A DNA stretch of 64,000 nt from positions 8,680,001-8,744,000 of the forward strand of contig NC_092674.1 in NCBI RefSeq assembly GCF_964355755.1, in the 5' to 3' direction. Positions 23,001-54,301 of this stretch are shown here, piece by piece (position 1 is the first letter of the stretch; the number at the start of each line of letters is the position of its first letter). Below the pieces are notes generated by a model that was not told the origin of the DNA, did no database searches, and was given only the letters and a program-made list of their open reading frames with translations. A program made the translations under genes and the position numbers. This stretch comes from Antedon mediterranea (Eukaryota; Animalia; Echinodermata).

Positions 23001-26000
23001 AGACTCGGGTACCCCGAGTAATAAAAAGTATGATGTTCCCAAATATGGCAGTGATATGGATATGGATAGGGATATGACATCATCGTGTCCATATATGGGC
23101 ACATCACATTTGTTTGTCATAAACTTTGATAGTGTAGACAGAGCTTTAGAGTTATATCAGAAACGTGCAAGTATTAGTTCCTAAACTAATAACTCGCCAA
23201 CATTTAAAAAAATAACTTGATATAACAAAATATCTAAATTGTTTAATAATAGAGAATGGAGATATATCAATATGCTTTAAAACTGTTGAAACTATAAAAC
23301 ATATGTGCAAGTTTTTAGAGGTTTTTTTTGTTACTTTACAGTGATAAAGCATTGACTCCTCCTAAACATGCATTCTTTGTAGCTTCACATGGAAAAATAA
23401 AGGTGAGATGAAAAATAATATATAGCTAGTTTATCTGTATACTACAGACCACATTGTAGAAAGATTTTGTATATATATTTTCCTAATTAATATAGGCATT
23501 ATTTTCTGGTGATTTATTAGTGGTTAGGTCATCTACAGCCAATCACTGGGCCTAAGCAAAACTAACTCAAGGATCCTGCTAGTCTTAACTGTGCATGCTA
23601 AATGTTTGTGTAACAGCAACAAATATTGTATCTTTGACCTAAGCTCCTCTTTCATTTTTCTATGGTTGAAAACTACATAAAGGAATAGACTGTAATTTAA
23701 TATTGATGTGTTTTCTAATTTAACAGAAAGAGGAGATATTTTATTTCCAAGAAGAAGCAGCTATAGCACTGTCAGAGTATGAGTTCCAGCAAGGACACCA
23801 TCAACAGGCCCTTAATCTTCTCTCCAAGGTGAAAGGTGTAACTGGACTTTTCACAAAGGCATTGGTAGGGACTATCTACAGTATTATGTTTATGATAAAT
23901 TGACTATATATTACCCAATGGCTTTCAATCCAAGATATTGACTTATATTATAAAGCACTGTTTTCAAAAGTCTTACTTATTCACAGATGTGTAAACAACT
24001 ATCGCAGATGGAGATTGATGGAAAGGAAGACAGTCAGATTACAGCCAACATGATCTTGGCACAAGGCACATATTTAGACCAGTGTACGTATGCCCTCTAC
24101 TCCGCTATGGATGCTATACAGGATGATCATAATAGTGTAAGTATTTTAGAGTTGCAGGTTGCTCACCACGATGTTAACCATGTATCTGACAATAGTTTCA
24201 AGTTCTGTTTACACTATCAAACTTTCGATGATGTGCCCATATATGGACATGATGACATATCACTACCATTTTTAGGCACACCACATTTGCCCTATATATT
24301 TTTTAACTTATTATACCACTTCCCAGCTTCTCATTATCAACCACTTAAATCCTGACATCCAACCCTCTAAACATCTCTTCCCCAACTTAGGAAATTAACA
24401 TTATTGTATCAAGCAAAACTTGAACCAAGGACACATCACATTAAACACACATCATGACACTACCTAGCACTATAGACTGACCATGGAGTCCTCCATAATA
24501 AAAATATCAATGTCTCTGCCTGATTAGACTCAAAACTAAACCTAATTACAATTTCAGTCTATGCATGAAGAAATTCAACAGCTGCTGGAAGAGGTAGATA
24601 CTGAAAAGCAGCAACTTGCTCATAAAGGTTTAGAAGAAACCGAAACATTTGATACACCACGCAGAATTAGTAACAGCACACCTATGAATAGGAGATCTTT
24701 GGGGAAGACTCCTGCATCTGCAAGAACATCGTCAGTTGCTGGCAGGGAAACATTGCCATCTATTGGTGATATGTCAACATTTCAGCAAGTAAGGAAAGAC
24801 TGCAGTAATACTACAAGAGTTTCTGCAGTAGTACTATGAAAGTTGCTGCAGTAATACGACTTGTGGTGTCACCCTAATTATATTACAGTTAATATTTGCA
24901 ATTGGGATAAGCCTTCCTCTCTAATTATATAAGGATAGGGTAAACTAATATCTAGGCCTTAGCAATCCCAAGATTGGATGAGTTTTTCTTGTATTACATA
25001 TAGACTGTAATTATGTATATTTTCAACAGGGGTTAAGTCCGGATCCAAGTCCACGACGACTAATGTCAGAGTTGCGTACAATGAACGCAAGTCAGACACG
25101 CCTTATCGACGAGAACTCGCAATTACGAACACTTGCATTGTCCCACAGTCGTTTACTTGAGCAGAATTCTGAGATTCTATCAAAACACAATGAGGTGATG
25201 GACCAGAATAAGTTTTTGATGGAACAGATTCTTCATTTAAATGTAAGTAAGACAGTATTTGTGTGTGTAAACTTTGGAATGCACATTAGTACTGTGTTAA
25301 GCTTGTATACCTGGTTTCACTTAGTGATTGAGTGGCCGAGCGGTTAAGACAGTGGAACCGTAATTACGAAGCCATAACATCGGTATGCTCGAAATAGGAC
25401 TATAAACCGTATGTCCAGTTTACACATCTAGCTCTTGTGCATCTTTCGAGGCAAGTAGGTGTTGTATTAGTACACACACAGCCACTGTCGCACACAGTCA
25501 CTGATCATAACTGGCTCATTGTTTGTCCCATCATTCACTAAATGTGTTATATCTAGTATTTCTCTGGATGAACAAGACATAGTAAGAATTTAAATTTTAA
25601 AAAAATAAATTCTACTAGACTCATACTTAACCGTACCAAAGTTAATTCATTTAATTTTCTATAAGTATGGTTGTCATTGCAGAAAGAATTACAAGAGTTA
25701 AAATTAAACAGTTCAATAAGCTCACCAAACCCAGCAAAAGAGAAGGATACTAGTACCATTAACACAGACCAAACCATCATTATTAACGCCGCTGATTGTA
25801 GAATTGAACATGCTGATGCCCCAAATTTAACAAATCCTCAACCTGTTATGTATTACCCACCACACACACCAATGTTTCCCCCTCAATTCATACCAGGCTA
25901 TATACCGGGAATTCCAATACCTGGATTGGCGGAACAGCAATACATACCTTCCATGATGAACTCAACCCCGGGACCACACTATCAAGGAGAGGAAGCATAC

Positions 26001-29000
26001 GAAGCAGAAGGTGATGCGTATAATATAGATCCACATGTGTCACTAAAACTGCGAGACAACAATGTGTTCTCCACCCCAGCACGCAATATTGCACAGAGTA
26101 GAACACCAGAGGCTAGTATTTCTTCAGAATCCACACGTATTGATGAAGGATTTGCAGGCTTCTCTGGACTCAATCAACCAACACCGTTCTTGCAGCAAAA
26201 CCCCTCAACAGGAATGCCTCAAGTGGCACCAAATGGAAGTGCTGGCATGAAACCTTCCATCTACCAACCAAAACTTAACATACCACAACCAGCATCCTCA
26301 CCAGTTGCTATGAGTAAAGATGAAACTGCTCCAGAGAGGTCTGCCAGTGATGCTCCATTGTTACGTAAAATACTAATAGGGTCAGATGTTGACCCACCTC
26401 CTGCTGTTACACAATCTTTTCCTGCTTTTTCATCTGTTTCTTCAAACTCCAGGTTTGGCGGAGGAGACAAATTATCTGAAAAATCTGCTGTTTCGCCTAA
26501 TTTTACATTTGGTACTCGTCTGGAGTCTGCGAAAGCAAAAGAAGCTGAGCATACTCCAGTTTTCACTCCAAGTGCATCTTTTGGAAGTAAATCTGATGCA
26601 AGTGGAAACCCACAAACAGTAACCTCTGGCTTTTCATTTGGAGGTGGTAATATCTTTACCCCAGTGTCTACTAATCCAGCTTCAACCATCCAATTCAACC
26701 AACCAGCAGCTCAGCCCACAAGCAGTGGACCTTTTAGTCAGCTAGTAGCAGCTACTGGTTTCAAGGGTCTCAATTCTAACTCAACAAAGGAACCTACCAC
26801 CACTTCACCATTTGCTGGGCTTAGTTTAGGTGCTCAAACCCCACCAACAGCAGCACCTCAGCCTAGAAAGCCTACCGAAGGCTCTTTATTTTCAGGTCAG
26901 GAGTCTGTAGTATCCAGTTCAACCTCAAAAAGCAGCGGTTAGTTTTTTGTTCTATTTTTCTTTTATTGCTTAAATAAGGGAGTACATAAATGTTAATTGA
27001 TCAACAAAATCTTCACCAATATGTTGAATAATAAAAACCTGCATCTTCTCCACTACAGTAGGTAAAAAAGGATGGAGTTACATATTGAAAATCTTCAAAA
27101 TAGTATATTGTTATGCAGTATATAGATATATCTAATGATTTGAAACTGTTTTCCTTAAGAAGATCTGACAAGCAAGACCCAGTTGGCTTGTGCTGCAATG
27201 AACAATTTTCTTAACCCCATTTAATTGTACTGTCTTATTTTTTAAATCAGAGGAGGATGATGTTATATTGATTTATGAAAGAAAACCAACTCCAGCACAG
27301 ATTGCGATGGCTCTCAAATTGAAGCTGCCTCCAACATTCTATCTCTATGAATACAAAAAACCGTGCCCTGGTTGTATTGGTTGTGAAGATATCAATCTGG
27401 CAATGTTGTATAAAAAGGAAAACAAAGTTTTCAAAGATGCCACTCAGGCCAGTACTACTATCTTGCAAGACCCTAAACCAACACAAGAATGTAAGTTTTT
27501 CATATATACAGAAAAATGTTTTTGAAAGGTATTTTTAGACCTTGTTTATATTTAATTTTTTATATATATATATATTCTTTTTCAGCAACTTCTACAGAAC
27601 CATTGATGTTTGGAGGAGGATCGTCCACCTCTTTGACCTTTGCGTCTGTCACAGCTGGCAAACAAAATACTCCAGATTTTATGAAACAACGTAATTCACT
27701 TTTTACTTCTAACTTTTTACAATTAACTCGGTACTCATTTGTTAATAGAACAACTTAAATAATAAAGTTCACTATTATTTATTATTCATTATTTCAGAAT
27801 CTGCAAAGGCATTCTCTTGGACAAGTGCTGGCGCACAGCTGTTTAGCTCTAGTGCAGGAGGTGATGATGAGTACGACCCACATTATGAAGCTATTGTGAC
27901 TTTGCCTGAAGTTGTCGATCTTAAAACTGGAGAGGAAGACGAAAAATGCCTTTATAAAGATCGTGCCAAACTGTACCGATTCAACAAAGATATAAACCAG
28001 TGGAAAGAGCGTGGAGTTGGAGATGTCAAATTCATGCAGAATAAGAACACTGGTAGGATACGTGTGCTAATGCGTCGTGATCAGGTATTGAAAGTGTGTG
28101 CTAACCACATGATCACAGCAGACCTTGATATGAAAGCTATGCAGTCATCAGATCGTGCCTGGGTCTGGAGTGCACTTGATTTCTCTGAAGGAGAAGCGCA
28201 AATGGAGCAATTGGCAATCAAGTTCAAGAAGCCAGAAATGGCAAAGGAATTTAAAGAGAAGTTTGATGAGTGTAAAGTCCTTGTTAAAGAAGCAGAAACA
28301 AAAGCAAATGAAAAGCCGGAAACTAAAAAGATCCCAGAAAAACCAAAAGAGGTTTGTACATTATTTAGCTTTAATGGGGAACTGAAAGTGTCTTCTGCCT
28401 GATAATGTTTTACAAACATTTTTATATAATCTTCGTTAAATGAAAATGATAATACATATACTTTATAATTATCCATAATTTACGATTATTAATTAGTTTT
28501 TGAATGTGTAGTGTATAATGTAGTTATCAGAGATTATGATATTTGTCTTCAAAGAATTTCATATGTTACATTAATGTTTCTATTTTAAACTTTTCCTGAT
28601 TAGACTTTTGCTGACAAGTTCAAACCAAAAGCAGGAACATGGATATGCGACACTTGTCTTGTTAACAATCCTCCTGACACAGTTAAATGTCTTGCTTGTG
28701 CTACACTCAAACCAGGAGCAGCACCACCTCAATCGGCAGCTGCATCAACTAAACCTTCCGGAGCTACTGGATTCAGGTTTGATGGTCCAACTAGTTCACC
28801 ACAAACTTCAAAATTCAGTTTTGGTGGAGGTTCTGGTCCTGCAAGTGATGTTAAATCTCAGTCTGGTTTTTCTTTTGGAAAGCCAGCAAATGTTGCAGAC
28901 AGTAAACCTTCAGAATTTTCTTTTGGAAAGTCCACTGGTGGTGCTGCTGCTCTCCCCTCCACAGGCTTCTCATTCGGACAAGCTAGTGGTACGCCTACCT

Positions 29001-31498
29001 CAGGCTTTTCTTTTGGTAAAACTGATGGTAATAAAGCAGACTCAACAACTAGCAAGCCATCTGGGTTCTCTTTCGGCCAGACAAGTGACAGTAGTCAGCA
29101 ACCACCAACTGGTGGATTTTCATTTGTTGCTGATTCAAGTAAAACAGCATCCCCAGTCCAATCGAAAGCAGCACCTGCTGTCACTACTGATGTTACTGCT
29201 GAAAAATCAATGGTAAACAATTTCAATATTCTTTCAATATAATATATTTTGTTCCGTAAAACAATAATACTATTTTGCTTTGATGGCCAATTGGGAGATA
29301 ATTTCTTTTTGATGCGTCATGGTTCCGACAAAACACTTCCCAACTCTTTTATTATTTAGTACATAAATATAATACCTTTATTAATTATCTTAACACTTTT
29401 TAGACTTTAGCAGAACGATTAAAACCTAAACCAGGATCCTGGTCTTGTCCTACATGTTACTGCCAGAATTCTGCCGAACAGAAGAAATGTCCAGCATGCC
29501 AAACCTGCCAACCAGGTAGTCAACCAGAAGCATCTAGTTCAACTGCACCTTCTAGCAGTTCTTTCCAATTTGGCAGCAGTTCAGCTTTCGGACAGTTGCA
29601 AGGAAGTAGCCAAGAAGGTGCTGTGGCACCAACAACACCTACAAAGACTTTCTCATTTGGTTCTTCTGGAAAGGTATTGCCGCAATTCTCTTTTGGTGAA
29701 GGTGGTGAAACTACTGGCGCCACTTCAAAACCCGTCTCAACTGGATTTACCTTTGGGGCAACACCAGCATCCAGTGGATTCATATTTGGAAATAACCAGA
29801 ATCAAAATGCATCCGAAGAACAAGCTCTTGATCTTTCATCACCAAAAAAGACAGGCAGCCCAAGCTGTAAATTTTCAGAGATACCAAAATCATTCACCTT
29901 TCAATTCAAAATGGATCCTTATGAAGCAGCAAATGCACCACCAGCATCTCCAACAAAATCACCTGGTATTCAGCGATCACCTGGTCTAATCAAATCACCA
30001 GGTCTAGATAAGTCAGGAGATGATTCTTATTACAAAGATGATGACAATGATGGTCTGCATTTTGAGCCAGTTGTTCAACTTGATCTGGTGGAACTTACAA
30101 CCGGAGAGGAAGATGAAGAAGCAGAGTTTTGCCATCGAGCAAAGATGTATCGATATAACAAGGAAACCAATGAATGGAAAGAACGTGGTTTGGGTGATAT
30201 TAAAATACTAAGACATAAAGTAACTGGACTATACCGCCTTTTAATGAGACGAGAGCAAGTTCTGAAGTTATGTGCAAACCATTTCATTCTCCCAGAGATA
30301 GTTCTTCGGCCAAATTCAGGTTCTGATCGGTCTTGGGTCTGGACAGCAATGGATGCTTCTGATGATGGACAAGTCAAATCTGAATTGCTGGCAGTTCGTT
30401 TCAAGACTGCTGAGACTGCTACTGAATTCAAAGAAGCATTTGAAAATGCAAAGGAAGCTGTCAAGAAGATTAAGAGTATTAAGAAGTCTGAGCCAGCAGA
30501 AGTAAAAGAGACACAGGAGATAAATAAAGATGAAGTGAAGGAGATCGAAAATGAAGAGGTAACAGAAGACCAAAAAAGGGAGGAAGTTGAAGATGATGAA
30601 GAATATGAAGATGACGACGATTATGAAGACTATGATGATGAAGATGATGATGACAATGATGGTGAAGATGACAATGTTGATGAAGATGTAGAAGAGGAAG
30701 AAAAACCGAAAGAATCTCAGGAGGAAAAAAAATTAGAAAAGCAGGAAGAAAAACAGGAGGAAAAGCCAGGAAACACAAAAGATAATACTGCAGGTATTGT
30801 TTGTTATTCCTTACGTATTAAATGTAGTTGTATAAGCCTAATTCCATATTTTTTCTAAGCCAGATTGGTGTACATAACACTTTTATTTTAATGTTTTCTC
30901 TTTAGCTGCTGCTGCACCTAAATTAACATTCAGTTTCGGAATGGACTTTGCATCGGCAGTCAGAAAATCAATGAACGAAGATAAAACTAAGCCCAGCTCA
31001 ATATTCAGTCCTGAAAAGAATTCTGGTTCCAGTCCCAATAAAGGTTCTGATCAAGGATTTTATCCAGAAGAAGAACGGGATGATCTGCAGTTTAAACCAG
31101 TTGTCACCTTGCAAGAGGTGGAGGTAAAGACTGGTGAAGAAGAGGAAGAACAGTTGTTCTGTCAACGTGCTAAGCTTTTCCGTTGGAATCGTGACGAATC
31201 CCAGTGGAAAGATCGTGGCGTTGGAGAGATTAAGATCTTAAAACACAATGTCTTGAATCGATGTCGTATTTTAATGCGCAGAGATCAAGTATTGAAAATA
31301 TGTGCCAACCATATCATCACACCAGAGATGGAGTTAAAACCAAATGCAGGGTCTGACAGATCCCTTGTTTGGAACGCTATGGATGCATCTGAAATGGAAC
31401 CGCAATTGGAACAGCTGGCTGTAAGGTTCAAAACTTCGGATATTACTTCTGAATTTAAATCAGTCTTTGAAAAATGTCAAAAGAGTCCAACCAATTAA
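1275..31498 (+). CDS. RANBP2: RanBP2/Nup358 nucleoporin (E3 SUMO ligase), multi-exon, 5' end not located
   Basis: GT-AG exons read in a continuous frame: 1275-1500, 3206-3315, 12627-12689, 13065-13226, 13612-13772, 14210-14336, 14738-14882, 15249-15328, 15626-15767, 20505-20692, 21312-21490, 21808-21931, 22272-22387, 23342-23402, 23727-23864, 23987-24136, 24558-24788, 25030-25242, 25683-26937, 27251-27490, 27586-27690, 27798-28351, 28604-29212, 29404-30793, 30906-31498. Peptides match recalled RanBP2 motifs ([51 protein letters not shown], three WKE/DRG RanBDs, two W-x-C-x2-C-x3-N-x6-C-x2-C fingers). Confidence 0.95.
1898..3170. mobile_element. Non-autonomous hAT-like DNA transposon with internal poly-C tract
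   Basis: Imperfect TIR cagcgcatca / tgatgccctg, flanked by direct repeat gtatta; subterminal gagagc..gctctc repeats; poly-C at ~2033-2069. Confidence 0.6.
4369..6187. mobile_element. Non-autonomous hAT-like DNA transposon
   Basis: TIR cagggctcaattta / taaatcgagccctg, flanked by direct repeat acaag; subterminal gggctagt repeats. Confidence 0.65.
5340..6085. repeat. Foldback element with ~170-bp near-perfect inverted arms, nested in the hAT-like element
   Basis: 5340-~5510 is the reverse complement of ~5916-6085. Confidence 0.85.
6961..7131. mobile_element. MITE, possibly PIF/Harbinger-like
   Basis: TIR gggtctttcacacctgtt / aacaggtgtaaaagaccc. Confidence 0.6.
7229..9409 (-). mobile_element. 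Deleted DNA transposon, Sola2-like
   Basis: TIR gggcaattccatg / catggaattgccc with 4-bp duplication AGCT; many internal gtcactcgcattac motifs; basic frameshifted ORF remnant on the minus strand at ~7940-8140 ([20 protein letters not shown]). Confidence 0.6.
9414..9705. repeat. ~97-bp tandem repeat, about 3 copies; degenerate relatives at ~6690-7225
   Basis: Repeated ctcaggctccattcataatggtttaacctgatcaagtgaatatctcaaacttaattcgcaatgaatc. Confidence 0.8.
9727..9981. mobile_element. MITE with ~32-bp perfect TIRs
   Basis: ctgccgtactttgagaaaaggcattatctaca / tgtagataatgccttttctcaaagtacggcag. Confidence 0.75.
10924..11858. mobile_element. Non-autonomous Tc1/mariner (pogo/Tigger-like) element
   Basis: Perfect TIR ccgtatatttcggtgtataagtcgcac at both ends, TA duplication, repeated gtgtataagacgcacc subterminal motifs. 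Confidence 0.85.
12034..12169. mobile_element. Short MITE family; other copies near 3810-3890, 22414-23148 (interrupted) and 24200-24300
   Basis: TIR agctctgtctacactat / atagtgtagacagacct; shared core ggtagtgatatgacatcatcatgtccatata. Confidence 0.75.
15798..18994. mobile_element. PIF/Harbinger-like non-autonomous transposon carrying a nested Gypsy remnant
   Basis: ~30-bp TIR ggcgtcatctacaaattatttcagaccac / gtggtctgaaataatttgtagatggcgcc, TTA duplication, cagacgcgt subterminal repeats. Confidence 0.8.
17202..18056 (-). mobile_element. Internally deleted Gypsy (Gmr1-like) LTR retrotransposon ORF: gag fused to RNase H C-terminus
   Basis: Gag motif [37 protein letters not shown] joined directly to [33 protein letters not shown]-stop. 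On the minus strand a polypurine tract (aaaaaggggaa) is followed by TGTCA at 17101, the probable 3' LTR start. Confidence 0.85.
19421..20388. repeat. Minisatellite: 12 near-identical copies of an 80-bp unit
   Basis: Unit gttccacactccctaacagacaccgtctgacataagatcaatggactgttatgaattcctaccttggcaaggcaagctca; one substitution and one 6-bp insertion seen. Confidence 0.97.
20960..21261 (-). mobile_element. tRNA-derived SINE with L2-like 3' tail
   Basis: Minus strand: tRNA-like head with B-box ggttcgaattcc; central ccttaggcaagatact..cccaggtgtataaat; tail taagcgctatataaa plus (tta)n. Confidence 0.75.
22852..22922 (-). pseudogene. Degenerate tRNA-Val(AAC)-like sequence inside a 12-bp-TIR element (22508-23020)
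   Basis: Minus strand ggcttcttggcgtagtgattatcacgtttgcttaacacgcagaaggtacctgattcgagcccgggcgaaac resembles eukaryotic tRNA-Val AAC, with broken acceptor and T stems. Confidence 0.7.
25327..25530 (+). mobile_element. tRNA-derived SINE fragment
   Basis: A-box tggccgagcggttaag followed by a degenerate body (aggactataaaccg). Confidence 0.45.
25683..26937 (+). CDS. RANBP2: RanBP2 large exon, Pro/Tyr-rich and FG-repeat region
   Basis: Within the 423-aa ORF 25671-26942; CAG acceptor and G|GTTAG donor; FTFG/FSFG motifs. Confidence 0.9.
27251..27490 (+). CDS. RANBP2: RanBP2 exon with IR (internal repeat, SUMO E3/Ubc9-binding)-like motif and CPGCIGC
   Basis: [28 protein letters not shown] closely resembles vertebrate IR1 (recalled as [28 protein letters not shown]). 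Confidence 0.85.
27798..28351 (+). CDS. RANBP2: RanBP2 exon, Ran-binding domain 1
   Basis: [40 protein letters not shown] RanBP1-domain signature. Confidence 0.95.
28604..29212 (+). CDS. RANBP2: RanBP2 exon, zinc finger 1 plus FG repeats
   Basis: [28 protein letters not shown] followed by repeated FSFG. This frame is absent from the ORF track because it has no upstream start codon. Confidence 0.9.
29404..30793 (+). CDS. RANBP2: RanBP2 exon, zinc finger 2, FG repeats, RanBD2 and acidic tract
   Basis: [22 protein letters not shown]; [25 protein letters not shown]; D/E-rich run. Confidence 0.93.
30906..31498 (+). CDS. RANBP2: RanBP2 last coding exon, RanBD3
   Basis: [25 protein letters not shown]; TAA stop at 31496-31498. 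Confidence 0.9.
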
Positions 31499-33953: not shown

Positions 33954-35473
33954 ATGGCATCTAAAGAATTGATTGAAGTAATTGATGCAGCAGCACTTGA
34001 GTGTCCTTTATGTATGAACCACTTCACAAGCCCAAAGATTCTAGCATGTGTTCATTCATTCTGTCTTGAGTGTCTTGAGAAATGGATGAAGAAAAGCAAT
34101 GGTGTACTCAGCTGCCCAACATGTCGTGAAGTCTGCCAGATTCCAGAAGGAGGACTTCAAAACTTGAAGAATAACATATTCATCAGTGGCTTGTTGGACT
34201 ATGTCACTACATTAGAAGAGAAGACCGCTCCAACTTGTAGTCTTTGTAGTACAGCAACATGTTTCTGCTGTCGAGATTGTGATGAACAAATTGCACGTCT
34301 TGCAGAGATATCCATGCAAAAATGAAGATATCACAACATCATCGCATCATCACGATGGAAGAATATACTGTTATCAACCCTGTGGAACATTTGGCTTCTA
34401 AATCTGTATATTGTTGCAACCATAATATGCCACTTCATTTCTTCTGTGGCAGCTGTAAGGTTCCAGTATGTGTAGGCTGTACATTAGTGGAACATCCAAT
34501 ATCTGATGGTCATAACATAATAAATATAGAAACTGCATTTGAGTCATTCGCAAAACTTTCAGAAAGTTTTATAAATAAAGCAGAAGAAAATTTGATTAAG
34601 TTTCATGACATTGCAAAGCAACTCAAAATAAAAGAGGAATTGGAAATGTCTAATTACAAAGAGTGTGAAGTAAAAATCACAGAAGAAGCTAACAAGGCAC
34701 ACCAATTGATTGATCGTTATAAGAAAGATCAACTCCAAGACCTTGAATCATCTCACCAACACAATCTTAAGTTAATCAGTGCCAATGAAAGTGAGGTTGA
34801 ATTGGCTATTGCTAAATTTTCTAGTACACAGGGAATTGTACGTACCTTGATACATAGCCCAAACCATGCTATGGCATTAAGATCAAGTTCTGATGTTACC
34901 AAACGAATGGACGAGCTTGTAGAACAAGATAACATTTCTGATGATATTCTCACACCAAATTTGGTGAAATATAAGAATACCAGATTTGAAGTGAAGACTG
35001 TTGATATTTTACATGGCAATGATGATTATGAAGCGATCATGACTTTACCAAAAGCCAGTCTAAAGACTGAAGATAGAATCAAAAACTGGTTATGGAAAGA
35101 TCTTGCCAAGTTGTGGACTTTCAACAAGGATACATATCCAAAGTGGAAAGAACATGAAGGTCATGTTGTCACATTTTGTCATACAAACTCTGGTAAGATG
35201 CAAATGTTAGTATTGAAAATTGAAATCTGTATTAGTCAGACAGTCACAGCAGACAGTGAGATGAAAGCAGTGAAGTCATCAGGACATGCCTGGGTCTGGA
35301 GTGATGCGGAAATGAAGAAATATGCACTCATATTCAAGGAGCCACAGTTCGCAAGAAAAATTAAAGATGATTTTGACGAGTATAAAAAGCTTGCTAATGA
35401 AGTAGAAGTAACAGCAAATGAGAAGCAGCAAACAAAGAAACAACCAAAAGAAACAAACAGAAAAGGTTTGTAA
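33954..35473 (+). pseudogene. TRIM-RanBD chimera copy 1: RING, B-box1, B-box2, coiled coil, diverged Ran-binding domain; one 1-nt frameshift near 34290
   Basis: C3HC4 RING (CPLC..CVHSFCLEC..CPTC) and B-boxes; the C-terminus aligns to RanBD1 (YEAIMTLP..KDLAKLWTFNKD..AWVWS). The two ORFs join if one base is restored (CDEQ-x-CTSCRDIH). Likely 5'UTR intron 33590-33932. Confidence 0.85.
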
Positions 35474-35599
35474 ATTTATTACTTTATTAAGTACCTTTAT
35501 CTCAAACCCATTGCTTAAACATAGAAAGGGGAGAGAGGGATGTTAAGTTAATGAATGAAATTCTATATTCACAAATTAATTAATCTATTTTAATCATTC

Positions 35600-41360: not shown

Positions 41361-41383
41361 ACTACAGCTATAAAAACCTGGGT

Positions 41384-43945: not shown

Positions 43946-44959
43946 TTAATATAAGATAATAATATGAAATTCCATTTAGGAAAAAATAAGACAAGGATGC
44001 TCTTTGTAAAGGAATGGTATAAGTACTTATGTTTTTATTATTTAAGAGCAAAATATATTAATTTACCTCATATTATATCAGCAATTTATTGGGATCTACT
44101 GTTCCCTTTACTTATAGCTTTTTTAATTTTTGCTGTATTTTACATGTATATGGATAAATAAAAATGAGTAATTCTGCTAGAATTCTTACTAGATGAAGTC
44201 TTACTTTTCTTTTATCAATAGTATATACAGTAACAAGGGAACAAATAGATGGATTTTCGATTTGATTAGGCCTATATCAATACATTATTTTTTTTAAAGA
44301 CACATCATTTGCATTGTTTCAGAGATTGCCCAAAATATGTACATAATAATATTGAGGGGATTTTATTTATATTCTATCCATGTACATGTTGGTGCTACTT
44401 TACTTCGGCACCTAATTTGAAATCGTTGGGCACATGGTGAGCTCAAGCAATTGCGGGTGCAATATGGGTGCATACCTGATGGAAACCAACCTCAACAAAC
44501 TGCTTTAATCTTTAATGAAAGGTTCATTATTTCAGAATATAAATTAGCATTTGTCAGAGTGTATTAGTAAAAGATGAAAATAATTATATAGGCCTAACTA
44601 ATACGTTTCGTATAAATAGAGTTTTGGCCAACTTGGCTTACCATAGTATGTAACCTGGGAATTTCCAGAACAATGACGAACAGTTTTTTAACACTCTACA
44701 TTCTGATCCTTGGACCCTTTACCACCCCTTCATATTATTGAGAGGAACCACCACCACTCCTACCAGGAATTTGATTTCAAAGTAAACTTCTTTGGTAAAA
44801 CGATTTGTATATTTTGTTATTGCTCGTTCATAACATCTGTCTGTTGGTCTTTCAAACTAGGCTAGTAGGCCTAGCTAGGCCTAGGCCTACTAGGCTAGCT
44901 AGTAGGCCTTCTAGTACTAGTAGAACTAGTCTACATTAGGATATTGCTTTTTTTAGGCG

Positions 44960-45992: not shown

Positions 45993-46816
45993 GGGGAATC
46001 CCGGATTATTTAGTTTTAGCGGCAGCGCCTGCATGGCATGCGTGCAGCTCAATGCGATTGTTTCTTCCAGCCAAAACAAATATCGGTTAATTTTTCAACC
46101 AATAAAAGTGCGCATGATCAGTTATTACCAAACAACCAGATGCCCAATCACATTGCAACAATTTTCACGTCGCATTTATCCAATAATTATCTGATTTGAA
46201 TGAGAAAAAAAAGAATTTCCGCGTAATTGATTGAACCCTCTTCTTGAATATTTGGACAAACAAATAAACAATGCATCGCGCGTCATAGCATGTTTATTGA
46301 ATTCTTCAACTACAGTTTAAGTTTTAAAAAATCAAGCTAAGATACATAAGTTGATAGAAATACAGATCTATTTATCAACATAGTACTGTAATGTTGAACG
46401 CATTTTTGTTTGCGCTAGCAACCACGCAGCGCCATCTATCATTGTGACGTCACACTGCAGAACTCTATAAATCCTGACGTATGCAGTGCCCTACTGCATG
46501 GAAAACATTACTGTTGCACGAAAACAGCGGATTGCTCATTCTTCTGATATATACTGTATTCTTTGCCCTATATATAGGGTACTACTGTACTAGGAACTAC
46601 TACTAGGCATGCTGAAACGACGCAGGGTATGGAACGCCCACATTATGCGCCAACTAGGCCAAATATTTATGTTATATGTTAATTTCGCTTGGTATTTCTA
46701 ATTATGTATAAACTTTGCTCTATCAATGGAAAGATCTATAAGAAATGTATGAGTATAATAATTAGTTTAATTTATTATATAAAACTTTTACTTTTCACAG
46801 GATTTTTTCATCTTCC

Positions 46817-49000
46817 ATGGCATCTAAAGAAGTAATTGAAGGAATTGAATCTGCTGCACTTGAGTGTTCTTTATGTATGAACCGCTTTACAAGACCAAAA
46901 GTTCTGACATGTGTTCATTCATTCTGTCTTCGATGCCTTGCGGAATGGGTGAAGAAAAGCGATGGGGTGCTCAGCTGCCCAACATGTCGTGATGTCTGCC
47001 AGATTCCAGAAGGAGGGCTTGAAAAGCTACAGAACAATATATTCATCAATGGCTTATTGGACTATGTTACTACATTGGAACAAAAGACCGCTCCAAATTG
47101 TAGCCTTTGTAGTACAGAAGCAAGTTTTTTCTGTCGTGACTGTGATGAGTTATACTGTACAAGTCACAGAAATGACCACACAAAAATGAAGATGTCACAA
47201 CATCATTGCATTATTACAATTGAAGAATATACTGTTATCAATCCTGTAGAGCGTTTGGCTTCTAAATCTGTATATTGTTGCAACCATAATATGCCACTTC
47301 ATTTCTTTTGTGGCAGCTGTAAGGTTCCAGTATGTGTAGGCTGTACATTAGTGGAACATCCAATATCTGATGGTCATAACATAATAAATATAGAAACTGC
47401 ATTTGAGTCATTCGCAAAACTTTCAGAAAGTTTTATAAATAAAGCAGAAGAAAATTTAATTAAGTTTCATGACATTGCAAAGCAACTCAAAATAAAAGAG
47501 AAATTGGAAATGTCTAATTACAAAGAATGTGAAGTAAAAATCACAGAAGAAGCTGACAAGGCACACCAATTGATTGATCGTTATAAGAAAGATCAACTCC
47601 AAGACCTTAAATCATCTCACCAACACAATCTCAAGTTAATCAGTGCCAATGAAAGTGAGGTTGAATTGGCTATTGCTAAATTTTCTAGTACACAGGGAAT
47701 TGCACGTACCTTGATACATAGCCCAAACCATGCTATGGCATTAAGATCAAGTTCTGATGTTTCTGAACGAATGGACGAGCTTGTAGAACAATATAACATT
47801 TCTGATGATATTTTCACACCAAATTTGGTGAAATATAAAATTAACACACACCAAACCATCATTGTTAACGCCGCTGACTTTAGAATTGAACATGCTGATG
47901 CCCCAAATTTAACAAATCCTCAACCTGTTATGTATTACCCACCACACACACCAATGTTTCCCCCTCAATTCATACCAGGCTATCTACCGGAAATTCCAAT
48001 ACCTGGATTGGGGGAACAGCAATACATACCTTCCATGATGAGCTCAACCCCGGGACCACACTATCAAGGAGAGGAAGCATACGAAGCAGAAGGTGATGCG
48101 TATAATATAGATCCGCATGTGTCACTAAAACTGCGAGACAACAATGTGTTCTCCACCCCAGCACGCAATATTGCACAGAGTAGAACACCAGAGGCTAGTA
48201 TTTCTTCAGAATCCACACGTATTGATGAAAGATTTGCAGGCTTCTCTGGACTCAATCAAACAGGAATGCCTCAAGTGGCACCAAATGGAAGTGCTGGCAT
48301 GAAACCTTCCATCTGCCAACCAAAACTTAACATATCACAACCAGCATCCTCACCAGTTGCTGTGAGTAAAGATGAAACTGCTCCAGAGAGGTCTGCCAGT
48401 GATGCTCCATTGTTACGTAAAATACTAATAGGGTCAGATGTTGACCCACCTCCTGTTGTTACACAATCTTTTCCTGCTTTCTCATCTGTTTCTTCAAACT
48501 CCAGGTTTGGCGGAGGAGACAAGTTATCTGAAAAATCTGCTGTTTCGCCTAATTTTACATTTGGTACTCGTCTGGAGTCTGCGAAAGCAAAAGAAGCTGA
48601 GCATACTCCAGTTTTCACTCCAAGTGCATCTTTTGGAAGTAAATCTGATGCAAGTGGAAACCCACAAACAGTAACCTCTGGCTTTTCATTTGGAGGTGGT
48701 AATATCTTTACCCCAGTGCCTACTAATCCAGCTTCAACCATCCAGTTCAGTCAATCCTCTTCTATATTCAACCAACCAGCAGCTCAGCCCACAAGCAGAG
48801 GACCTTTTAGTCAGCTAGTAGCAGCTACTGGTTTCAAGGGTCTCAATTCTAACTCAACAAAGGAATTTTTGCTGGGCTTAGTTTTAGGTGCTCAAACCCC
48901 ACCAACAGCAGCACCTCAGCCTAGAAAACCTACCGAAGGCTCTTTATTTTCAGGTCAGGAGTCTGTAGTATCCAGTTCAACCTCAAAAAGCAGCGGTTAG
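46817..49000 (+). CDS. TRIM-RanBP2 chimera copy 2: intact RING, B-box1, B-box2, coiled coil fused in frame to the RanBP2 Pro/FG exon (727 aa if unspliced; donor at 48996)
   Basis: Uninterrupted ORF with AG acceptor at 46799-46800 before the ATG. The junction near 47839 (LVKYK|INTHQTII) switches from TRIM sequence to a near-identical copy of 25758-26937. Confidence 0.9.
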   Translation: MASKEVIEGIESAALECSLCMNRFTRPKVLTCVHSFCLRCLAEWVKKSDGVLSCPTCRDVCQIPEGGLEKLQNNIFINGLLDYVTTLEQKTAPNCSLCSTEASFFCRDCDELYCTSHRNDHTKMKMSQHHCIITIEEYTVINPVERLASKSVYCCNHNMPLHFFCGSCKVPVCVGCTLVEHPISDGHNIINIETAFESFAKLSESFINKAEENLIKFHDIAKQLKIKEKLEMSNYKECEVKITEEADKAHQLIDRYKKDQLQDLKSSHQHNLKLISANESEVELAIAKFSSTQGIARTLIHSPNHAMALRSSSDVSERMDELVEQYNISDDIFTPNLVKYKINTHQTIIVNAADFRIEHADAPNLTNPQPVMYYPPHTPMFPPQFIPGYLPEIPIPGLGEQQYIPSMMSSTPGPHYQGEEAYEAEGDAYNIDPHVSLKLRDNNVFSTPARNIAQSRTPEASISSESTRIDERFAGFSGLNQTGMPQVAPNGSAGMKPSICQPKLNISQPASSPVAVSKDETAPERSASDAPLLRKILIGSDVDPPPVVTQSFPAFSSVSSNSRFGGGDKLSEKSAVSPNFTFGTRLESAKAKEAEHTPVFTPSASFGSKSDASGNPQTVTSGFSFGGGNIFTPVPTNPASTIQFSQSSSIFNQPAAQPTSRGPFSQLVAATGFKGLNSNSTKEFLLGLVLGAQTPPTAAPQPRKPTEGSLFSGQESVVSSSTSKSSG

Positions 49001-49309
49001 TTTTTTGTTCTATTTTTCTTTTATTGCTTAAATAAGGGAGTATATAAATGTTAATTGATCAACAAAATCTTCACCAATATGTTGAATAATAAAAACCTGC
49101 ATCTTCTCCACATACAGTAGGTAAAAAATGATGGAGTTACATATTGAAAATCTTCCAAATAGTATATTGTTATGCAGTATATAGATATATCTAATGATTT
49201 GAAACTGTTTTCCTTAAGAAGATCTGACAAGCAAGACCCAGTTGGCTTGTGCTGCAATGAACAATTTTCTTAACCCCATTTAATTGTACTGTCTTATTTT
49301 TTAAATCAG

Positions 49310-51250
49310 AGGAGGATGATGTTATATTGATTTATGAAAGAAAACCAACTCCAGCACAGATTGCGATGGCTCTCAGATTGAAGCTGCCTCCAACATTCTA
49401 TCTCTATGAATACAAGAAACCGTGCCCTGGTTGTATTGGTTGTGAAGATATCAATCTGGCAATGTTGTATAAAAAGGAAAACAAAGTTTTCAAAGATGCC
49501 ACTCAGGCCAGTACTACTATCTTGCAAGACCCTAAACCAACACAAGAATGTAAGTTTTTCGTATATACAGAAAAATGTTTTTGAAAGGTATTTTTAGACC
49601 TTGTTTATATTTAATTTTTTATATATATATATATATATTCTTTTTCAGCAACTTCTACAGAACCATTGATGTTTGGAGGAGGATCGTCCACCTCTTTGAC
49701 CTTTGCGTCTGTCACAGATGGCAAACAAAATACTCCAGATTTTATGAAACAACGTAATTCACTTTTTACTTTTAAATTTTTACAATTAACTCGGTACTGA
49801 TTTGTTAAAAATGTATTGTCCCCAAAAAACATGAAAAATGAAGATTAATTAAATCAGATTTGAATAGGTTATTTTGTAGTTTTAATAAAGTTAATCACCT
49901 CCGTAGAAAAAAATAATGTTTTCACTTATAACATAACATAATAAATAAATTACAGTTTTTTTCAGATAAATAAATTTTGTTTAGATCCAATTTTTTTTCA
50001 AAAGCCCCTTTCTCACAGAGCTGTGTGCCAGGAATATTGCGGGAATATACCATTACCATGCCGGTATGGTTTTCTGTGAGAACGGGTCGTCTTGGCATCA
50101 TGCCGGCATCGACATGACCTGCTTTAGACCTGTAATATTCTAGGTATATTCTGTGAGAACGTAACGCTGTTATATTCCGGGGTTATATTTAATTCCTGGT
50201 CGAGTCTTTGACACCTTGCGCGGTCAAATGTATCACTTTGGCGCCGATTCAATTCAATTAACAATAATAATGTCGAACTGGAGGGATAATGAGATAAGAG
50301 ATGTGCTTAAATAAGGCGACAAAAAGAAATTTGTAGCATAATTTATAGGCCTAGCCTCTAGGCCATAGCTCTTTTGTTGGTGCCTGACCCTTTGTCACCT
50401 TGTAAATTGTACAGCCTTCTAAGGTGTTTTACATATTGCTGATGACGGCTAATTAATTGCTGCTGGCTGTACCTGTATAATATATGCACAATATACTGTA
50501 CATAGCATGTATTGCATAAATATGCTATTAAGGAAGATAATAACCTGTAACTTAAAATAAGTACAAAAATACAACAACAAAAATAATAACAATAAAGGAC
50601 GCCCTCAATAATTATTTTGTCGGAGACTTTTATTGGCCGAATATGCCCGACTCCTTTCTCACAGAAAGCCAGTATATACCGGTTATATTTCCGGCACGAT
50701 AGTCCGATGAGAATGGGTATATGCGGGTAACGATACCGGCATGACGCCAACATAATACCGGTATATTGCAGGCACATCTGTGAGAAAGGGCTAAAGTGGA
50801 TAACTATTATGTGATATTAAAAAAAAATATTGTAAAAAATTTTTTAGGGGGACAATACATCTTTAATAGAACAACTTAAATAATAAAGTTCACTTTATTT
50901 CAGAATCTGCAAAGGCATTCTCTTGGACAAGTGCTGGCGCACAGCTGTTTAGCTCTAGTGCAGGAGGCGATGATGAGTACGACCCACATTATGAAACTAT
51001 TGTGACTTTGCCTGAAGTTGTCGATCTTAAAACTGGAGAGGAAGACGAAAACTGCCTTTATAAAGATCGTGCCAAACTGTACCGATTCAACAAAGATATA
51101 AATCAGTGGAAAGAGCGTGGAGTTGGAGATGTCAAATTCATGCAGAATAAGAACACTGGTAGGATACGTGTACTAATGCGTCGTGATCAGGTATTGAAAG
51201 TGTGTGCTAACCACATGATCACAGCAGACCTTGATATGAAAGCTATGTAA
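49310..51250 (+). CDS. Downstream exons of chimera copy 2: IR motif exon 49310-49549, exon 49649-49753, truncated RanBD1 exon 50904-51250
   Basis: Near-identical to parental exons with intact splice sites; a 195-bp deletion in RanBD1 ends in TAA at 51248-51250. Confidence 0.65.
49809..50862. mobile_element. Kolobok-like element with nested MITE (~50004-50792)
   Basis: TTAA duplication at a site that is empty in the parental intron (~27742); TIR aaatgtattgtcccc / ggggacaatacatct; inner TIR gcccctttctcacaga / tctgtgagaaagggc. Confidence 0.85.
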
Positions 51251-51527
51251 AAACCAAAAGAGGTTTGTACATTATTTAGCTTTAATGGGGAACTGAAAGT
51301 GTCTTCTGCCTCATAATGTTTTACAAACATTTTTATATAAATCTATATTTATATAATATATATAAATGAAAATAATAATACATATACTTTATAATTATCC
51401 ATAATTTACGATTATTAATTAGTTTATTAATGTGTAGTGTATAATGTAGTTATTCAGAGATTATGACATTAGTCTTCAAAGAATTTCGTATGTATTAATG
51501 TTTCTATTTTAAACTTTTCCTGATTAG

Positions 51528-52977
51528 ACTTTTGCTGACAAGTTCAAACCAAAAGCAGGAACATGGACATGCGACACTTGTCTTGTTAACAATCCTCCTG
51601 ACACAGTTAAATGTCTTGCTTGTGCTACACTCAAACCAGGAGCAGCACCACCTCAATCGGCAGCTGCATCAACTAAACCTTCCGGAGCTACTAGATTCAG
51701 GTTTGATGGTCCAACTAGTTCACCACAAACTTCAAAATTCAGTTTTGGTGGAGGTTCTGGTCCTGCAAGTGATGTTAAATCTCAGTCTGGTTTTTCTTTT
51801 GGAAAGCCAGCAAATGTTGCAGACAGTAAACCTTCAGAATTTTCTTTTGGAAAGTCCACTGGTGGTGCTGCTGCTCTCCCCTCCACAGGCTTTTCATTCG
51901 GACAAGCCAGTGGTACGCCTACCTCAGACTTTTCTTTTGGTAAAACTGATGAAGGTAATAAAGCAGACTCAACAACTAGCAAGCCATCTGGGTTCTCTTT
52001 CGGCCAGACAAGTGACAGTAGTCAGCAACCACCAACTGGTGGATTTTCATTTGTTGCTGATTCAAGTGAAACAGCATCCCCAGTCCAACCGAAAGCAGCA
52101 CCTGCTGTCACTACTGATGTTACTGCTGAAAAATCAATGGTAAACAATTTCAATATTCTTTCAATATAATATATTTTGTTCCGTAAAACAATAATACTAT
52201 TTTGCTTTGATGGCCAATTGGGAGATAATTTCTTTTTGATGCGTCATGGTTCCTACAAAACACTTCCCAACTCTTTTATTATTTAGTAGATAAATATAAT
52301 ACCTTTATTAATTATCTTAACACTTTTTAGACTTTAGCAGAACGATTAAAACCTAAACCAGGATCCTGGTCTTGTCCTACATGTTACTGCCAGAATTCTG
52401 CCGAACAGAAGAAATGTCCAGCATGCCAAACCTGCCAACCAGGTAGTCAACCAGAAGCATCTAGTTCAACTGCACCTTCTAGCAGTTCTTTCCAATTTGG
52501 CAGCAGTTCAGCTTTCGGACAGTTGCAAGGAAGTAGTCAAGAAGGTGCCGTGGCACCAACAACACCTACAAAGACTTACTCATTTGGTTCTTCTGGAAAG
52601 GTATTGCCGCAATTCTCTTCAAGGTGGTGAAACTACTGGCGCCACTTCAAAACCCGTCTCAACTGGATTTACCTTTGGGGCAACACCAGCATCCAGTGGA
52701 TTCATATTTGAAAATAACCAGAATCAAAATGCATCCGAAGAACAAGCTCTTAATCTTTCATCACCAAAAAAGACAGGCAGCCCAAGCTGTAAATTTTCAG
52801 AGATACCAAAATCATTCACCTTTCAATTCAAAATGGATCCTTATGAAGCAGCAAATGCACCACCAGCATCTCCAACAAAATCACCTGGTATTCAGCGATC
52901 ACCTGGTCTAATCAAATCACCTGGTCTAGATAAGTCAGGAGATGATTCTTATTACAAAGATGATGACAATGATGGTC
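51528..52977 (+). pseudogene. Duplicated RanBP2 ZnF1 and ZnF2/FG exons (51528-52139, 52331-~52977)
   Basis: Near-identical to 28604-30056; frameshifting deletion at ~52620; homology stops just before RanBD2. Confidence 0.9.
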
Positions 52978-54129
52978 AGTTTTTAGACTGGCTATTGCTT
53001 CGTAATCATCATCGCCATTTAAGATATTAATGAAGAGTCACAACATCATTGCATTATTACAATAGAATATACTGTTATCAATCCTGTAGAGCGTTTAGCT
53101 TCTAAATATGTATATTGTTGCAAACATAATATGCCACTTCATTTCTTTTGTGGTAGCTGTAAAGTTCCAGTATGTTTAGGATGCACACTTGTTGAACATC
53201 CTATATCTGATGGTCATAAAATAATCAATATAGAAAATGTATTTGAGCTATTCACAAAACTTTCAGAAAGTTTTAATTGCAAAGCAGCTGAAAGAGAAAG
53301 AGGAATTAGAAATGGTGAATTACAAAAAGTGTGAAGCAAAAATCACAGAAGAAGCTGACATCAATTGATTGATCATTATAAAAAAGTCCAACTGCAATCT
53401 CTCGAATCATCTCACTGGGTCCGTGGAGGGCCTAATCCAGTTAAACTTGATGACCAGTAATAATACATTTAACATTTAATCAGTGCCACTGTAAGTGATG
53501 TTGAATTAGCGATTGCTAAATTTTCCAGTATGCAGGGAATTGCACGTACCTTGATACATAGGCCAAACCATGCTATGGCACTAAGTTCAAGTTCCGATGT
53601 TTCTAAACAAATAGGCCAACTTGACAAACAACGTAACATTTCTGATGATATGCTCACATTAAATTTATCTGAATACAATAATACCAGATTTGAAGTGAAG
53701 CCTGTTGGTATTTTACACGGCGATGATTATAAAGCAGTAACCATGCCTAAAGATGGTCTAAAAACTGAAGAGGAAAGTGAAAACTGTTCTTTGAAAGATC
53801 TTACCAACTTATGGTGTTTTAATAAGGATGAAAATAAGTGGATAGAATATGACGGTGATACTGTCAAATTTATTCATACAAAGAAAACTGGTAGGATGGA
53901 AATGCAGATACTGAACATCAGTGAAAACAGCATAGTCACAGCAGACAGTAAGATAAAGGCTATTCCATCATCAGACCATGCCTGGGTTTGGAGTGAAGCA
54001 GGAATGAAGAAATATGCACTAATATTTAAGGAGCCAATATTGTTAGCACGAGAATTCAAAGAAAATTTGATAAGACGAAGAAAAAGCTTGTTAATAAAGT
54101 ACTTGAGGAAGAAAGGGTTCCACTTCTAG
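52978..54129 (+). pseudogene. TRIM-RanBD chimera copy 3, 5'-truncated and frameshifted
   Basis: B-box2 (CKHNMPLHFFCGSCKVPVCLGC), broken coiled coil, then diverged RanBD (KDLTNLWCFNKDENKW..DHAWVWSEAGMKKYALIFKEP) collinear with copy 1. Confidence 0.88.
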
Positions 54130-54301
54130 ACCCCCTTGAGCCAGAAGAAAAGGTTTGTAAATCCAGTACCATTATTGAAAATGGAAAATAAAAATAATAT
54201 TATCATAAGTGATAAAAAATTTACATAAATACCTAAAATTGATGACTCGAAATTTAGTTATTCACAGATTCAGTTATTCTATTTTAAATTTCTTTTATTA
54301 G

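Follow-up and report, generated by a model that had tools for sequence, protein, structure and literature searches.

RanBP2 and TRIM genes at the locus

The window analyzed here is a stretch of 64,000 nucleotides from the feather star Antedon mediterranea (contig NC_092674.1, positions 8,680,001 to 8,744,000, forward strand). It contains a RanBP2/Nup358 gene at approximately 1233–31498 (the N-terminal exons were placed with four orthologs), whose seven 3' exons hold 1581 codons with zero internal stops. Three TRIM copies lie downstream of RanBP2 and are interleaved with RanBP2 duplicates. Coordinates are those of the window, and genes and exons are on the plus strand unless stated otherwise. 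TRIM copy 1 (33954..35473) has a RING–B-box–coiled-coil (RBCC) region that is frameshifted in B-box1 and joined to an old, diverged copy of the first Ran-binding domain of RanBP2 (RanBD1). TRIM copy 3 (53029..54140) is a 5'-truncated, frameshifted B-box2–coiled coil followed by an old diverged RanBD. The subject of this study is copy 2, in which the RBCC region runs in frame into a copy of the neighboring RanBP2. We consider it a recent RBCC–RanBP2 chimera that is likely decaying rather than working, and we give this reading a probability of about 0.6.

The TRIM–RanBP2 junction

The ATG-to-TAG frame of copy 2 lies at 46817-49000 and has 727 codons, as the original prediction had described. Alignments also agree with the predicted switch near 47839 from TRIM to RanBP2. 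The TRIM sequence is common with copy 1 through PNLVKYK and RanBP2 follows from 25758, so that the junction (47839..47840) is in frame, contains no intron, and has at most 1 bp common to the two partners. The RanBP2 match to the chimera has a bit score of 3209, and chance is excluded for the junction. The break is at codon 341/342, past the whole coiled coil and its return helices. It had been placed just after the coiled coil, where TRIM specificity domains sit. Both the AlphaFold2 helices, which end at aa 325, and the alignment of relatives, in which the family's own C-terminal domain stands there, agree with that position. As had also been proposed, the N-terminal region of RanBP2 was replaced: about 890 residues, whose exons are at 1233-25230, are lost.

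Reads from four of 10 runs (X1, X5, X7, and X10) were compared at window positions up to 51320. The read check that had been suggested for the junction (47700-48000) came out in its favor. A 179-nt contig from the DNA run X1 bridges 47732-47910 with 0 differences and a depth of 15, while parent-type letters at 47878 have a depth of 13.1. X1 is possibly from the source animal of the assembly and thus bears on assembly error, not on population frequency. Long X1 contigs mix parent and fusion letters, which we read as merged near-identical copies and not as alleles.

The TRIM half of the chimera

By its domain matches and a structural model, the N-terminal half is a TRIM/RBCC protein with RING, B-boxes, and a coiled coil with return helices, and E3 activity is predicted for it. 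The RING finger (aa 17-57; 46865..46987) matched Pfam zf-C3HC4 (E 2.2e-07, 31 bits versus a cut-off of 21) and zf-C3HC4_4 (E 2.3e-08), and all eight ligand positions are kept in the alignment. A B-box1-like region (aa 95-130) and B-box2 (aa 151-192), together at 47099..47392, matched ANCHR-like_BBOX (E 2.7e-06) and zf-B_box (E 1.8e-06), both above the Pfam cut-off. The coiled coil and return helices (aa 192-325; 47390..47791) were modeled by AlphaFold2 as helices 192-301, 303-309, and 313-325. This model covers aa 1-378 with a mean predicted local distance difference test (pLDDT) score of 58 (53-79 in the helix blocks), and the RING is poorly modeled in it. Pfam TRIM_CC was not reported for the chimera at E 0.01.

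A region at 44480..44860 aligns with the upstream region of copy 1 and contains a candidate donor for the 5' untranslated region (UTR), GT at 44782 (GT at 33590 in copy 1); it would presumably be used as an exon. A pyrimidine tract and an acceptor AG (46799-46800), both common to copy 1, occupy 46786..46816. With this AG just ahead of the ATG, a non-coding exon must lie upstream of the coding one. The presumed 5' UTR intron of copy 2 also contains an element at 44960-45993 with 256-bp inverted arms (95% alike) that enclose a 275-bp fragment of TRIM copy 2. This fragment (45214-45488) is 97.8% identical to 46973-47246 and resembles a gene piece caught by a transposon.

Compared with copy 1, the TRIM half is a mosaic. 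The two are approximately 85-90% identical in the RING–B-box1 region, with a synonymous divergence (dS) of 0.42 and a ratio of non-synonymous to synonymous change (w) of 0.26. From B-box2 on they are 96-99% identical (dS 0.07, w 0.28). Both w values indicate purifying selection on the RBCC (p 8e-05 and p 0.012, respectively). The mosaic fits an old paralog that exchanged its 3' part with copy 1. A contig from organism B is 4 letters in 345 off the RING region of copy 2. Relatives in Antedon and Anneissia have a different C-terminal domain behind the same linker. For the family's own C-terminal domain we obtained only a lead to filamin (Atlas score 0.86 versus a bar of 0.9). One Anneissia relative, P0006, has DUSP and ubiquitin-like domains ahead of the RBCC and is an apparent chimera with a neighboring gene type.

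The RanBP2-derived exons

The copied DNA, 4.3 kb in length, is approximately 98% identical to the RanBP2 template segment (25758..30055), introns included. Five RanBP2 introns were copied at 94-99% identity; four of them differ by 1-4%, and one 55-nt piece differs by 5%. The Pro/Ser/Thr-rich tail of exon 1 (47840..48995) is a copy of 25758-26937 with 20 substitutions, a 30-bp deletion, and 4 phenylalanine-glycine (FG) motifs. Intron 1 (GT...AG, 48996..49309) contains the TAG at 48998-49000 and an AATAAA at 49088, which are also in the parent intron. The end of the first exon reads AGC G/GT TAG (the slash marks the splice site), identical to the parent donor, and the TAG is two bases into the intron. 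Thus, the 727-codon frame, which had been taken for a gene, corresponds to the first coding exon only, and its TAG is inside an intron that the parent splices. Exon 2 (49310..49549) contains an internal repeat (IR) element with the strand DDVILIYE, which resembles a SUMO-interacting motif (SIM), followed by CxxCxxC (Pfam IR1-M, E 1.4e-08). Exon 3 (49649..49753, 105 nt) has AG/GT ends, and a contig from run X5 has 105 letters between 49549 and 50904. Exon 4 (50904..51262) encodes RanBD1 with a 195-bp deletion and matched positions 1-74 of the 122 of Pfam Ran_BP1. Beyond the stop are exon 5 (51528..52139), with a RanBP2 zinc finger and 6 FG, and the 5' part of exon 6 (52331..52977), with a zinc finger and FG motifs, where the copy closes at parent position 30055. 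The copied segment ends before RanBD2.

Parent-like splicing would give a protein of 956 aa containing the RBCC, the Pro/Ser tail, the IR/SIM element, and 60% of RanBD1. The IR element would be in this spliced model only. It is 99% identical to that of the parent, and its SIM strand and helix (motifs I-II of IR1) are present. The first 38 residues of the exon align to human RanBP2 2629-2665 (E 6e-11) and to the 1Z5S and 3UIN peptides. For motifs III-V, which wrap Ubc9, the alignment gave a weak extension to aa 64, against 1Z5S alone. Human IR1 is the main SUMO E3 element of RanBP2, and its motif I is a SIM (PMC3281653; this and the other cited papers are used here in excerpt). The parent gene (27251-31498) has three RanBDs and a single IR element, which comes ahead of all three and has CxxCxxC behind it.

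FG motifs are few in the part of the copy that could be translated. There are 4 in the 386-aa exon-1 tail, the first at aa 564, and the 956-aa model has 5 FG and 2 FxFG versus 18 and 14 in the 1581 aa of the parent. Twelve FG motifs of the copied segment are in exons 5-6, past the stop. The chimera had no Pfam match to a Nucleoporin_FG domain, and it does not have the dense FG/FxFG content of such a domain. The original prediction saw here a fresh FG-nucleoporin tail and a soluble FG-bearing E3 ligase, and this is not supported: the tail is FG-poor, and a spliced product would end in an IR/SIM element and a broken RanBD1 at a premature stop. The exon-1 tail also evolves with a w of 0.76 (see below), showing no purifying selection, and the reads compared yielded no transcript that crosses the junction. 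A complete RanBD followed by a cyclophilin domain was not found either: the copied RanBD1 is partial, and none of 13 frames scanned with Pfam matched cyclophilin.

Lesions and indels in the copy

The spliced frame ends at codon 957 with a TAA (51248-51250) at the edge of the 195-bp deletion, which corresponds to 28142-28336 of the parent. From this stop it is 12 nt to the exon 4/5 junction and 624 nt to the exon 5/6 junction. Nonsense-mediated decay acts on stops that lie more than approximately 50-55 nt before an exon junction, and therefore a transcript extending over the exon 5/6 junction would likely be degraded. In exon 6 there is a 5-bp frameshift deletion after 52618. Intron 3 contains a high-copy insertion of 1,054 bp (49809..50862, no strand assigned) with terminal inverted repeats and a TTAA target duplication; the parent intron is without it, and its read depth is in the thousands. 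In its disabling lesions and retained introns, copy 2 resembles an unprocessed (duplicated) pseudogene. The word "intact" in the original prediction is thus true for exon 1 only.

The TTAA insertion itself seems nested. Many contigs skip approximately 49995-50793, as if a second element were inside the first, and ends related to this insertion are also at 43400-43950 and 55727-55852.

Compared with the parent, the exon-1 tail has indels of −30 and +21 as well as a −16/+1 pair. This pair is a compensated frameshift at 48866..48886, where the alignment with the parent shows a net −16 followed 14 nt on by an additional T. The −16 alone would stop the frame after codon 689, and a +1 could rescue it at 36 of 1155 positions (3%). 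RanBP2 of organism B contains the 21 bp plus 6 more, and thus the +21 is a loss in the parent allele of the window, not a gain in the fusion. It had been proposed that the indels restore the frame; this applies to the −16/+1 pair. Between the RanBP2 contig of X5 and the fusion there are 101 gap letters, indicating that length changes are common in the tail region. The absence of point nonsense changes from exon 1 is unsurprising, with a probability of 0.46-0.61 for 13-20 neutral changes.

Divergence and selection

Over all 1013 RanBP2-derived codons, dS is 0.021. Together with the copied introns, this supports the recent, DNA-level event that had been proposed with synonymous divergence as its check. 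The RanBP2 allele in X5 differs from the fusion by 16 letters, and the parent in the window differs from it by 18. Contigs of organism B differ from the chimera tail by 9-13 letters in 250-350, about twice the distance between copy and parent. The event is thus young, of about the same depth as the variation among alleles, but there has been time for the lesions to accumulate. The chimera tail matched none of 160 proteins compared, which left no outgroup protein for it.

For the exon-1 tail, 6 synonymous and 14 non-synonymous differences from the parent gave a w of 0.76 (p 0.6 versus w = 1). For exons 2-4 up to the stop, w is 0.28 (4 silent, 4 replacement, p 0.08), and for exons 5-6 it is 0.51 (5 silent, 8 replacement). 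None of these three regional values differs from 1 at p 0.05. Exon-1 sites were polarized by hand with organism B, and 13 of 20 were resolved; the resulting table is the best-supported subset of sites. Nine changes were on the fusion side and all of them are replacements (neutral probability 0.08), one being common to the RanBP2 contig of X5. Four were on the parent side, and 2 of these are silent. Exons 5-6 were polarized with the tail of copy 1, which is approximately 5–7% diverged. Here 10 changes fell on the copy (one of them adjoins the 5-bp deletion), 2 fell on the parent, and 2 stayed unassigned.

Transcript evidence

Run X5 behaves as RNA. One contig joins exons 2, 3, and 4, and intron 1 is without depth. 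Its contigs begin at 49309 with ten more letters and connect exons 2 and 4 through the 105 letters, indicating that the parent uses these splice sites. In X5 there is also a contig of parent type from 47840 on, and a TRIM contig whose letters are mostly copy-1-like. No listed X5 contig covers the junction and none has a copy-2 letter at the listed diagnostic sites; this run is from another sample, and contigs cannot show absence. Among the contigs listed for run X7 of organism B at 47840-48088, only the parent type was found, which does not prove that the fusion is absent from organism B. Run X10, with a depth of 2-5, was too shallow to inform. The exact 727-aa protein was not found in the protein collection searched, and there was no annotated fusion model among 11 matches of 399-1273 aa. 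Searches for longer relatives and for relatives of the old RanBD found none, a weak result as the search for longer relatives also missed the parent.

Origin of the chimera

At the 3' end of the copy there is an inverted filler of 56 nt (52976..53031, minus strand) that matches the sequence where the old diverged RanBD begins in copies 1 and 3. By blastn-short, its matches are 27/31 to 35004-35034, 17/18 to 35053-35070, and 13/13 to 53756-53768. The filler agrees with the earlier proposal that an older diverged RanBD was swapped out. In a quick tree, the RanBD of copies 1 and 3 grouped with Antedon RanBD1, with a Shimodaira–Hasegawa-like approximate likelihood ratio (SH-aLRT) support of 99. 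It is 46-49% identical to RanBD1 (dS 0.5-0.8, w 0.44-0.77), and w is 0.53 between the two copies. Copies 1 and 3 therefore probably descend from an old TRIM–RanBD fusion that was once constrained. The old and the recent event made two in-frame TRIM–RanBP2 joins, approximately 15-20 codons apart in the TRIM linker.

The simplest reading of the locus history would be a single template-switching event on top of the older fusion. With TRIM genes directly downstream of RanBP2, an old event would first have joined an RBCC to a RanBD1 copy, as in copies 1 and 3. A recent non-homologous template switch may then have set RanBP2 25758-30055 behind the coiled coil of copy 2, removing its old RanBD and leaving the inverted 56-nt scrap at the far end. 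This reading is based on the 0-1 bp shared at the 5' junction, the copied introns, and the inverted old-RanBD filler. Retroposition was ruled out since introns were copied, and unequal crossover at shared sequence was ruled out for the 5' junction, where only 0-1 bp is shared.

Other TRIM–RanBP2 chimeras and related systems

Among 149 RanBD-bearing proteins besides XP_071950715.1, the model of copy 1 (from the best 150 of 214 matches), two have an RBCC start, and both are predicted proteins. XP_066299091.1 (P0074) from Branchiostoma lanceolatum has RING, B-boxes, coiled coil, filamin, FG, IR1-M, and two RanBD. CAH1780692.1 (P0017) from Owenia fusiformis has RING, B-boxes, coiled coil, RanBDs, zinc fingers, Nup98 GLEBS and FG, and IR1-M. 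Like the Antedon chimera, both place RanBP2 parts behind an N-terminal RING, B-boxes, and coiled coil, and the N-terminal helical region of RanBP2 is absent; its N-terminal 900 residues had no match in either. Both are open frames as annotated. Their RBCCs are only 24-30% identical to that of Antedon and to each other. The amphioxus protein keeps a filamin domain and the Owenia protein adds Nup98 GLEBS/FG, and the Antedon chimera differs from both. The tail of XP_066299091.1 is 67-80% identical to Branchiostoma RanBP2 with the pieces reordered, and its RanBDs group with those of Branchiostoma. In CAH1780692.1 the first RanBD groups with its own second RanBD. The RBCC tree joins amphioxus and Owenia on long branches and cannot show kinship. 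From these comparisons the two chimeras look like separate origins, each being a single predicted gene model. No RBCC+RanBD cluster of at least 50 members was found in the Atlas.

The closest published system is zebrafish ftr52, described as a transcribed RBCC–RanBD–cyclophilin A gene with a premature stop, for which a transient benefit was proposed (Boudinot et al. 2011, PMC3137616). Both in ftr52 and in Antedon, an RBCC is joined at the DNA level to multi-exon RanBP2-like sequence that replaces the C-terminal domain, and both have a premature stop. According to the excerpted account, ftr52 belongs to the B30.2-class fish TRIMs, contains RanBD and cyclophilin, is joined at exon borders, and has been shown to be transcribed. 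In contrast, the Antedon chimera belongs to a crinoid TRIM family, is joined within an exon, has Pro/FG, IR, and RanBD1 without cyclophilin, and is known from DNA. TRIMCyp fusions arose repeatedly in primates, tree shrews, and rodents and are antiviral (PMC6677749), and they originated by CypA retrotransposition (PMC3137616). In TRIMCyp, too, a host protein stands in place of the TRIM C-terminal domain, there one that viruses bind. The antiviral activity of TRIMCyp has been demonstrated. Unlike TRIMCyp, the Antedon chimera has copied introns, and a cyclophilin domain was not found in it.

Artificial fusions have also been made. Trim5-NUP153C, an RBCC with an FG segment, restricts HIV-1 5-10 fold via single FG motifs (Matreyek et al. 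2013, PMC3795039), and a fusion of the Nup358 cyclophilin domain to TRIM5 has been reported (PMC3234246). Trim5-NUP153C resembles the Antedon chimera in joining an RBCC to a disordered FG-nucleoporin segment, but it is engineered from another nucleoporin and has 29 FG, whereas the Antedon chimera is natural and has 4-5. The ape RGPD genes are RANBP2-GCC2 fusions with recurrent duplication and gene conversion (bioRxiv 10.1101/2023.03.07.531415). Like the Antedon chimera they are young and came from partial RANBP2 duplication and juxtaposition. However, the RGPDs keep the RanBP2 N-terminus and gain GRIP, while in Antedon the head comes from TRIM and the C-terminal part from RanBP2. No invertebrate TRIM–RanBP2 fusion was described in the literature found, a search of top-ranked titles and abstract starts with supplements and subscription papers outside its scope. 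One lead on RanBP2, PMC9334734, was rejected as it concerns zinc-finger proteins.

Decay or function

Decay of copy 2 is indicated by the 195-bp deletion with its TAA, the 5-bp frameshift, and the 1,054-bp insertion. It is further indicated by the w of 0.76 in the exon-1 tail, by the replacements at 9 of 9 polarized fusion-side sites, and by the 10 changes on the copy versus 2 on the parent in exons 5-6. Moreover, the sister chimeras are broken, copy 1 by a frameshift and copy 3 by truncation, and ftr52 has a premature stop. A transcript of copy 2 would use the parent splice sites, read through the partial RanBD1, stop at codon 957, and likely trigger nonsense-mediated decay.

Several observations weigh against this reading. 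Across all RanBP2-derived codons w is 0.54 (p 0.07 versus w = 1), and for exons 2-4 up to the stop it is 0.28 (p 0.08). All parent splice sites are kept in the copy. The RBCC is whole and was formerly constrained, although this constraint acted mostly before the fusion. In X1, the depth at the junction is close to that of the parent, which fits both chromosomes carrying the fusion. RBCC–RanBP2 joins also recur, twice at the Antedon locus and in three other lineages, two of them by gene model. The best single argument for selection is the −16/+1 pair, given how few positions allow such a rescue. Nevertheless, both indels touch T runs 14 nt apart, and they may reflect one repair event or run-length errors.

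Alternatively, the chimera might work as a truncated TRIM ubiquitin ligase with nucleoporin parts as its targeting end, which we regard as possible but clearly less probable than decay. Dimerization would come from the coiled coil, and the disordered FG-bearing tail and, after splicing, the IR element would capture transport receptors, viral capsids, or proteins bound to SUMO/Ubc9 as substrates for ubiquitination by the RING. In its favor, the RING and B-boxes are intact, the break follows a whole coiled coil, the frameshift was compensated within a 3% rescue window, and every disabling lesion is downstream of the IR exon. The IR element, 99% like the parent, aligns to human IR1, which starts with a SIM (PMC3281653), but it matches well in the first 38 residues only. 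The engineered TRIM5 RBCC-NUP153 FG fusion does restrict HIV-1 (PMC3795039), but FG motifs number only 4 in the Antedon tail and 5 in the 956-aa form. For this form, the transcript would have to stop short of exon 6 or evade decay, and folding of its cut RanBD1 is not to be expected. Production of the 727-aa form would depend on polyadenylation within intron 1, where the AATAAA is simply inherited from the parent, and the exon-1 tail is without purifying selection. The amphioxus model has the same order RBCC(-filamin)-FG-IR-RanBD, the Owenia model combines RBCC with RanBP2 and Nup98, and their RanBDs group with those of their own lineages. However, these are single-member predicted gene models. 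TRIM genes are numerous in these animals, and thus recurrence can be chance and proximity.

A brief period of usefulness, with the chimera now on its way out, is improbable, though conceivable. Selection would have held exons 1-4 open for a time and fixed the +1, and would then have relaxed, in a birth-and-death cycle of immune baits in which copies 1 and 3 were earlier turns. In copies 1 and 3, the old RanBD did stay open over a dS of approximately 0.5, constrained yet fast-changing, the RanBD2 of copy 1 has a w of 0.29 (p 0.02), and a transient benefit was proposed for ftr52 (PMC3137616). However, a dS of 0.02 provides too few changes to tell early constraint from neutrality, and a brief use sets itself apart from simple decay in past function only. 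Least probable is an assembly error between neighboring repeats: the locus is a nest of near-identical duplications and X1 may be the same individual, but the X1 contig was built separately from reads and spans the junction with 0 differences, and a mis-join would not create the copy's own substitutions, deletions, and transposon.

A broader idea, which we consider doubtful, is that animals repeatedly and independently build antiviral TRIM ligases from pieces of Nup358/RanBP2 (and Nup98) behind an RBCC. If so, nuclear-pore parts would be bait for capsids or transport-receptor complexes heading to the nucleus. At the feather star locus the process would have been caught twice, first with an old RanBD graft and then with an FG/IR graft that gave a SUMO-reading ubiquitin ligase. 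ftr52, XP_066299091.1, and CAH1780692.1 would be further turns, a nucleoporin counterpart of TRIMCyp across chordates, echinoderms, and annelids.

TRIMCyp is a case in which a virus cofactor was turned into a trap by RBCC fusion, and the engineered TRIM5-NUP153 and TRIM5-Nup358Cyp fusions work in cells. In the excerpted literature, the only natural TRIM–RanBP2 fusion found in print is zebrafish ftr52, with its stop codon. The Antedon locus has two successive in-frame TRIM–RanBP2 joins in one cluster, with the rearrangement scar still readable. If any such chimera is expressed and selected, it would point to nuclear-pore surfaces used by invertebrate viruses and to natural baits. Decay is the likelier course for copy 2, and even then it would remain a clear, dated case of a TRIM gene sampling new C-terminal domains from a neighbor. 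The joins here and in three other lineages pose a testable question, and an intact FG-ligase was an overstatement.

Other features of the window

In copy 1 (33954-38569), a net 1-bp frameshift in B-box1 severs the RING. The NCBI model XP_071950715.1 (1148 aa, 99-100% identity) starts past this frameshift and consists of B-box2, coiled coil, RanBD, zinc finger, and RanBD. The tail of copy 1 is of two ages, with an old RanBD1/exon-5 remnant alongside a younger copy (approximately 5%) with a tandem duplication of exon 5/6 parts. At 38545-41393, minus-strand fragments interrupt this RanBP2 tail, and their flanks repeat exon 6 parts. Judging from their translations, the fragments are presumably pieces of the endonuclease and reverse transcriptase of a long interspersed nuclear element (LINE).

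In the parent RanBP2, a cyclophilin domain was not seen in the Pfam scan or the frames, and the last coding exon closes after RanBD3. One RanBP2 intron contains a frame of 284 codons on the minus strand (17202-18056), which we take to be a broken remnant of a long terminal repeat (LTR) retrotransposon. A tandem array at 19418-20388, also in a RanBP2 intron, consists of approximately 12 near-identical copies of an 80-bp unit.

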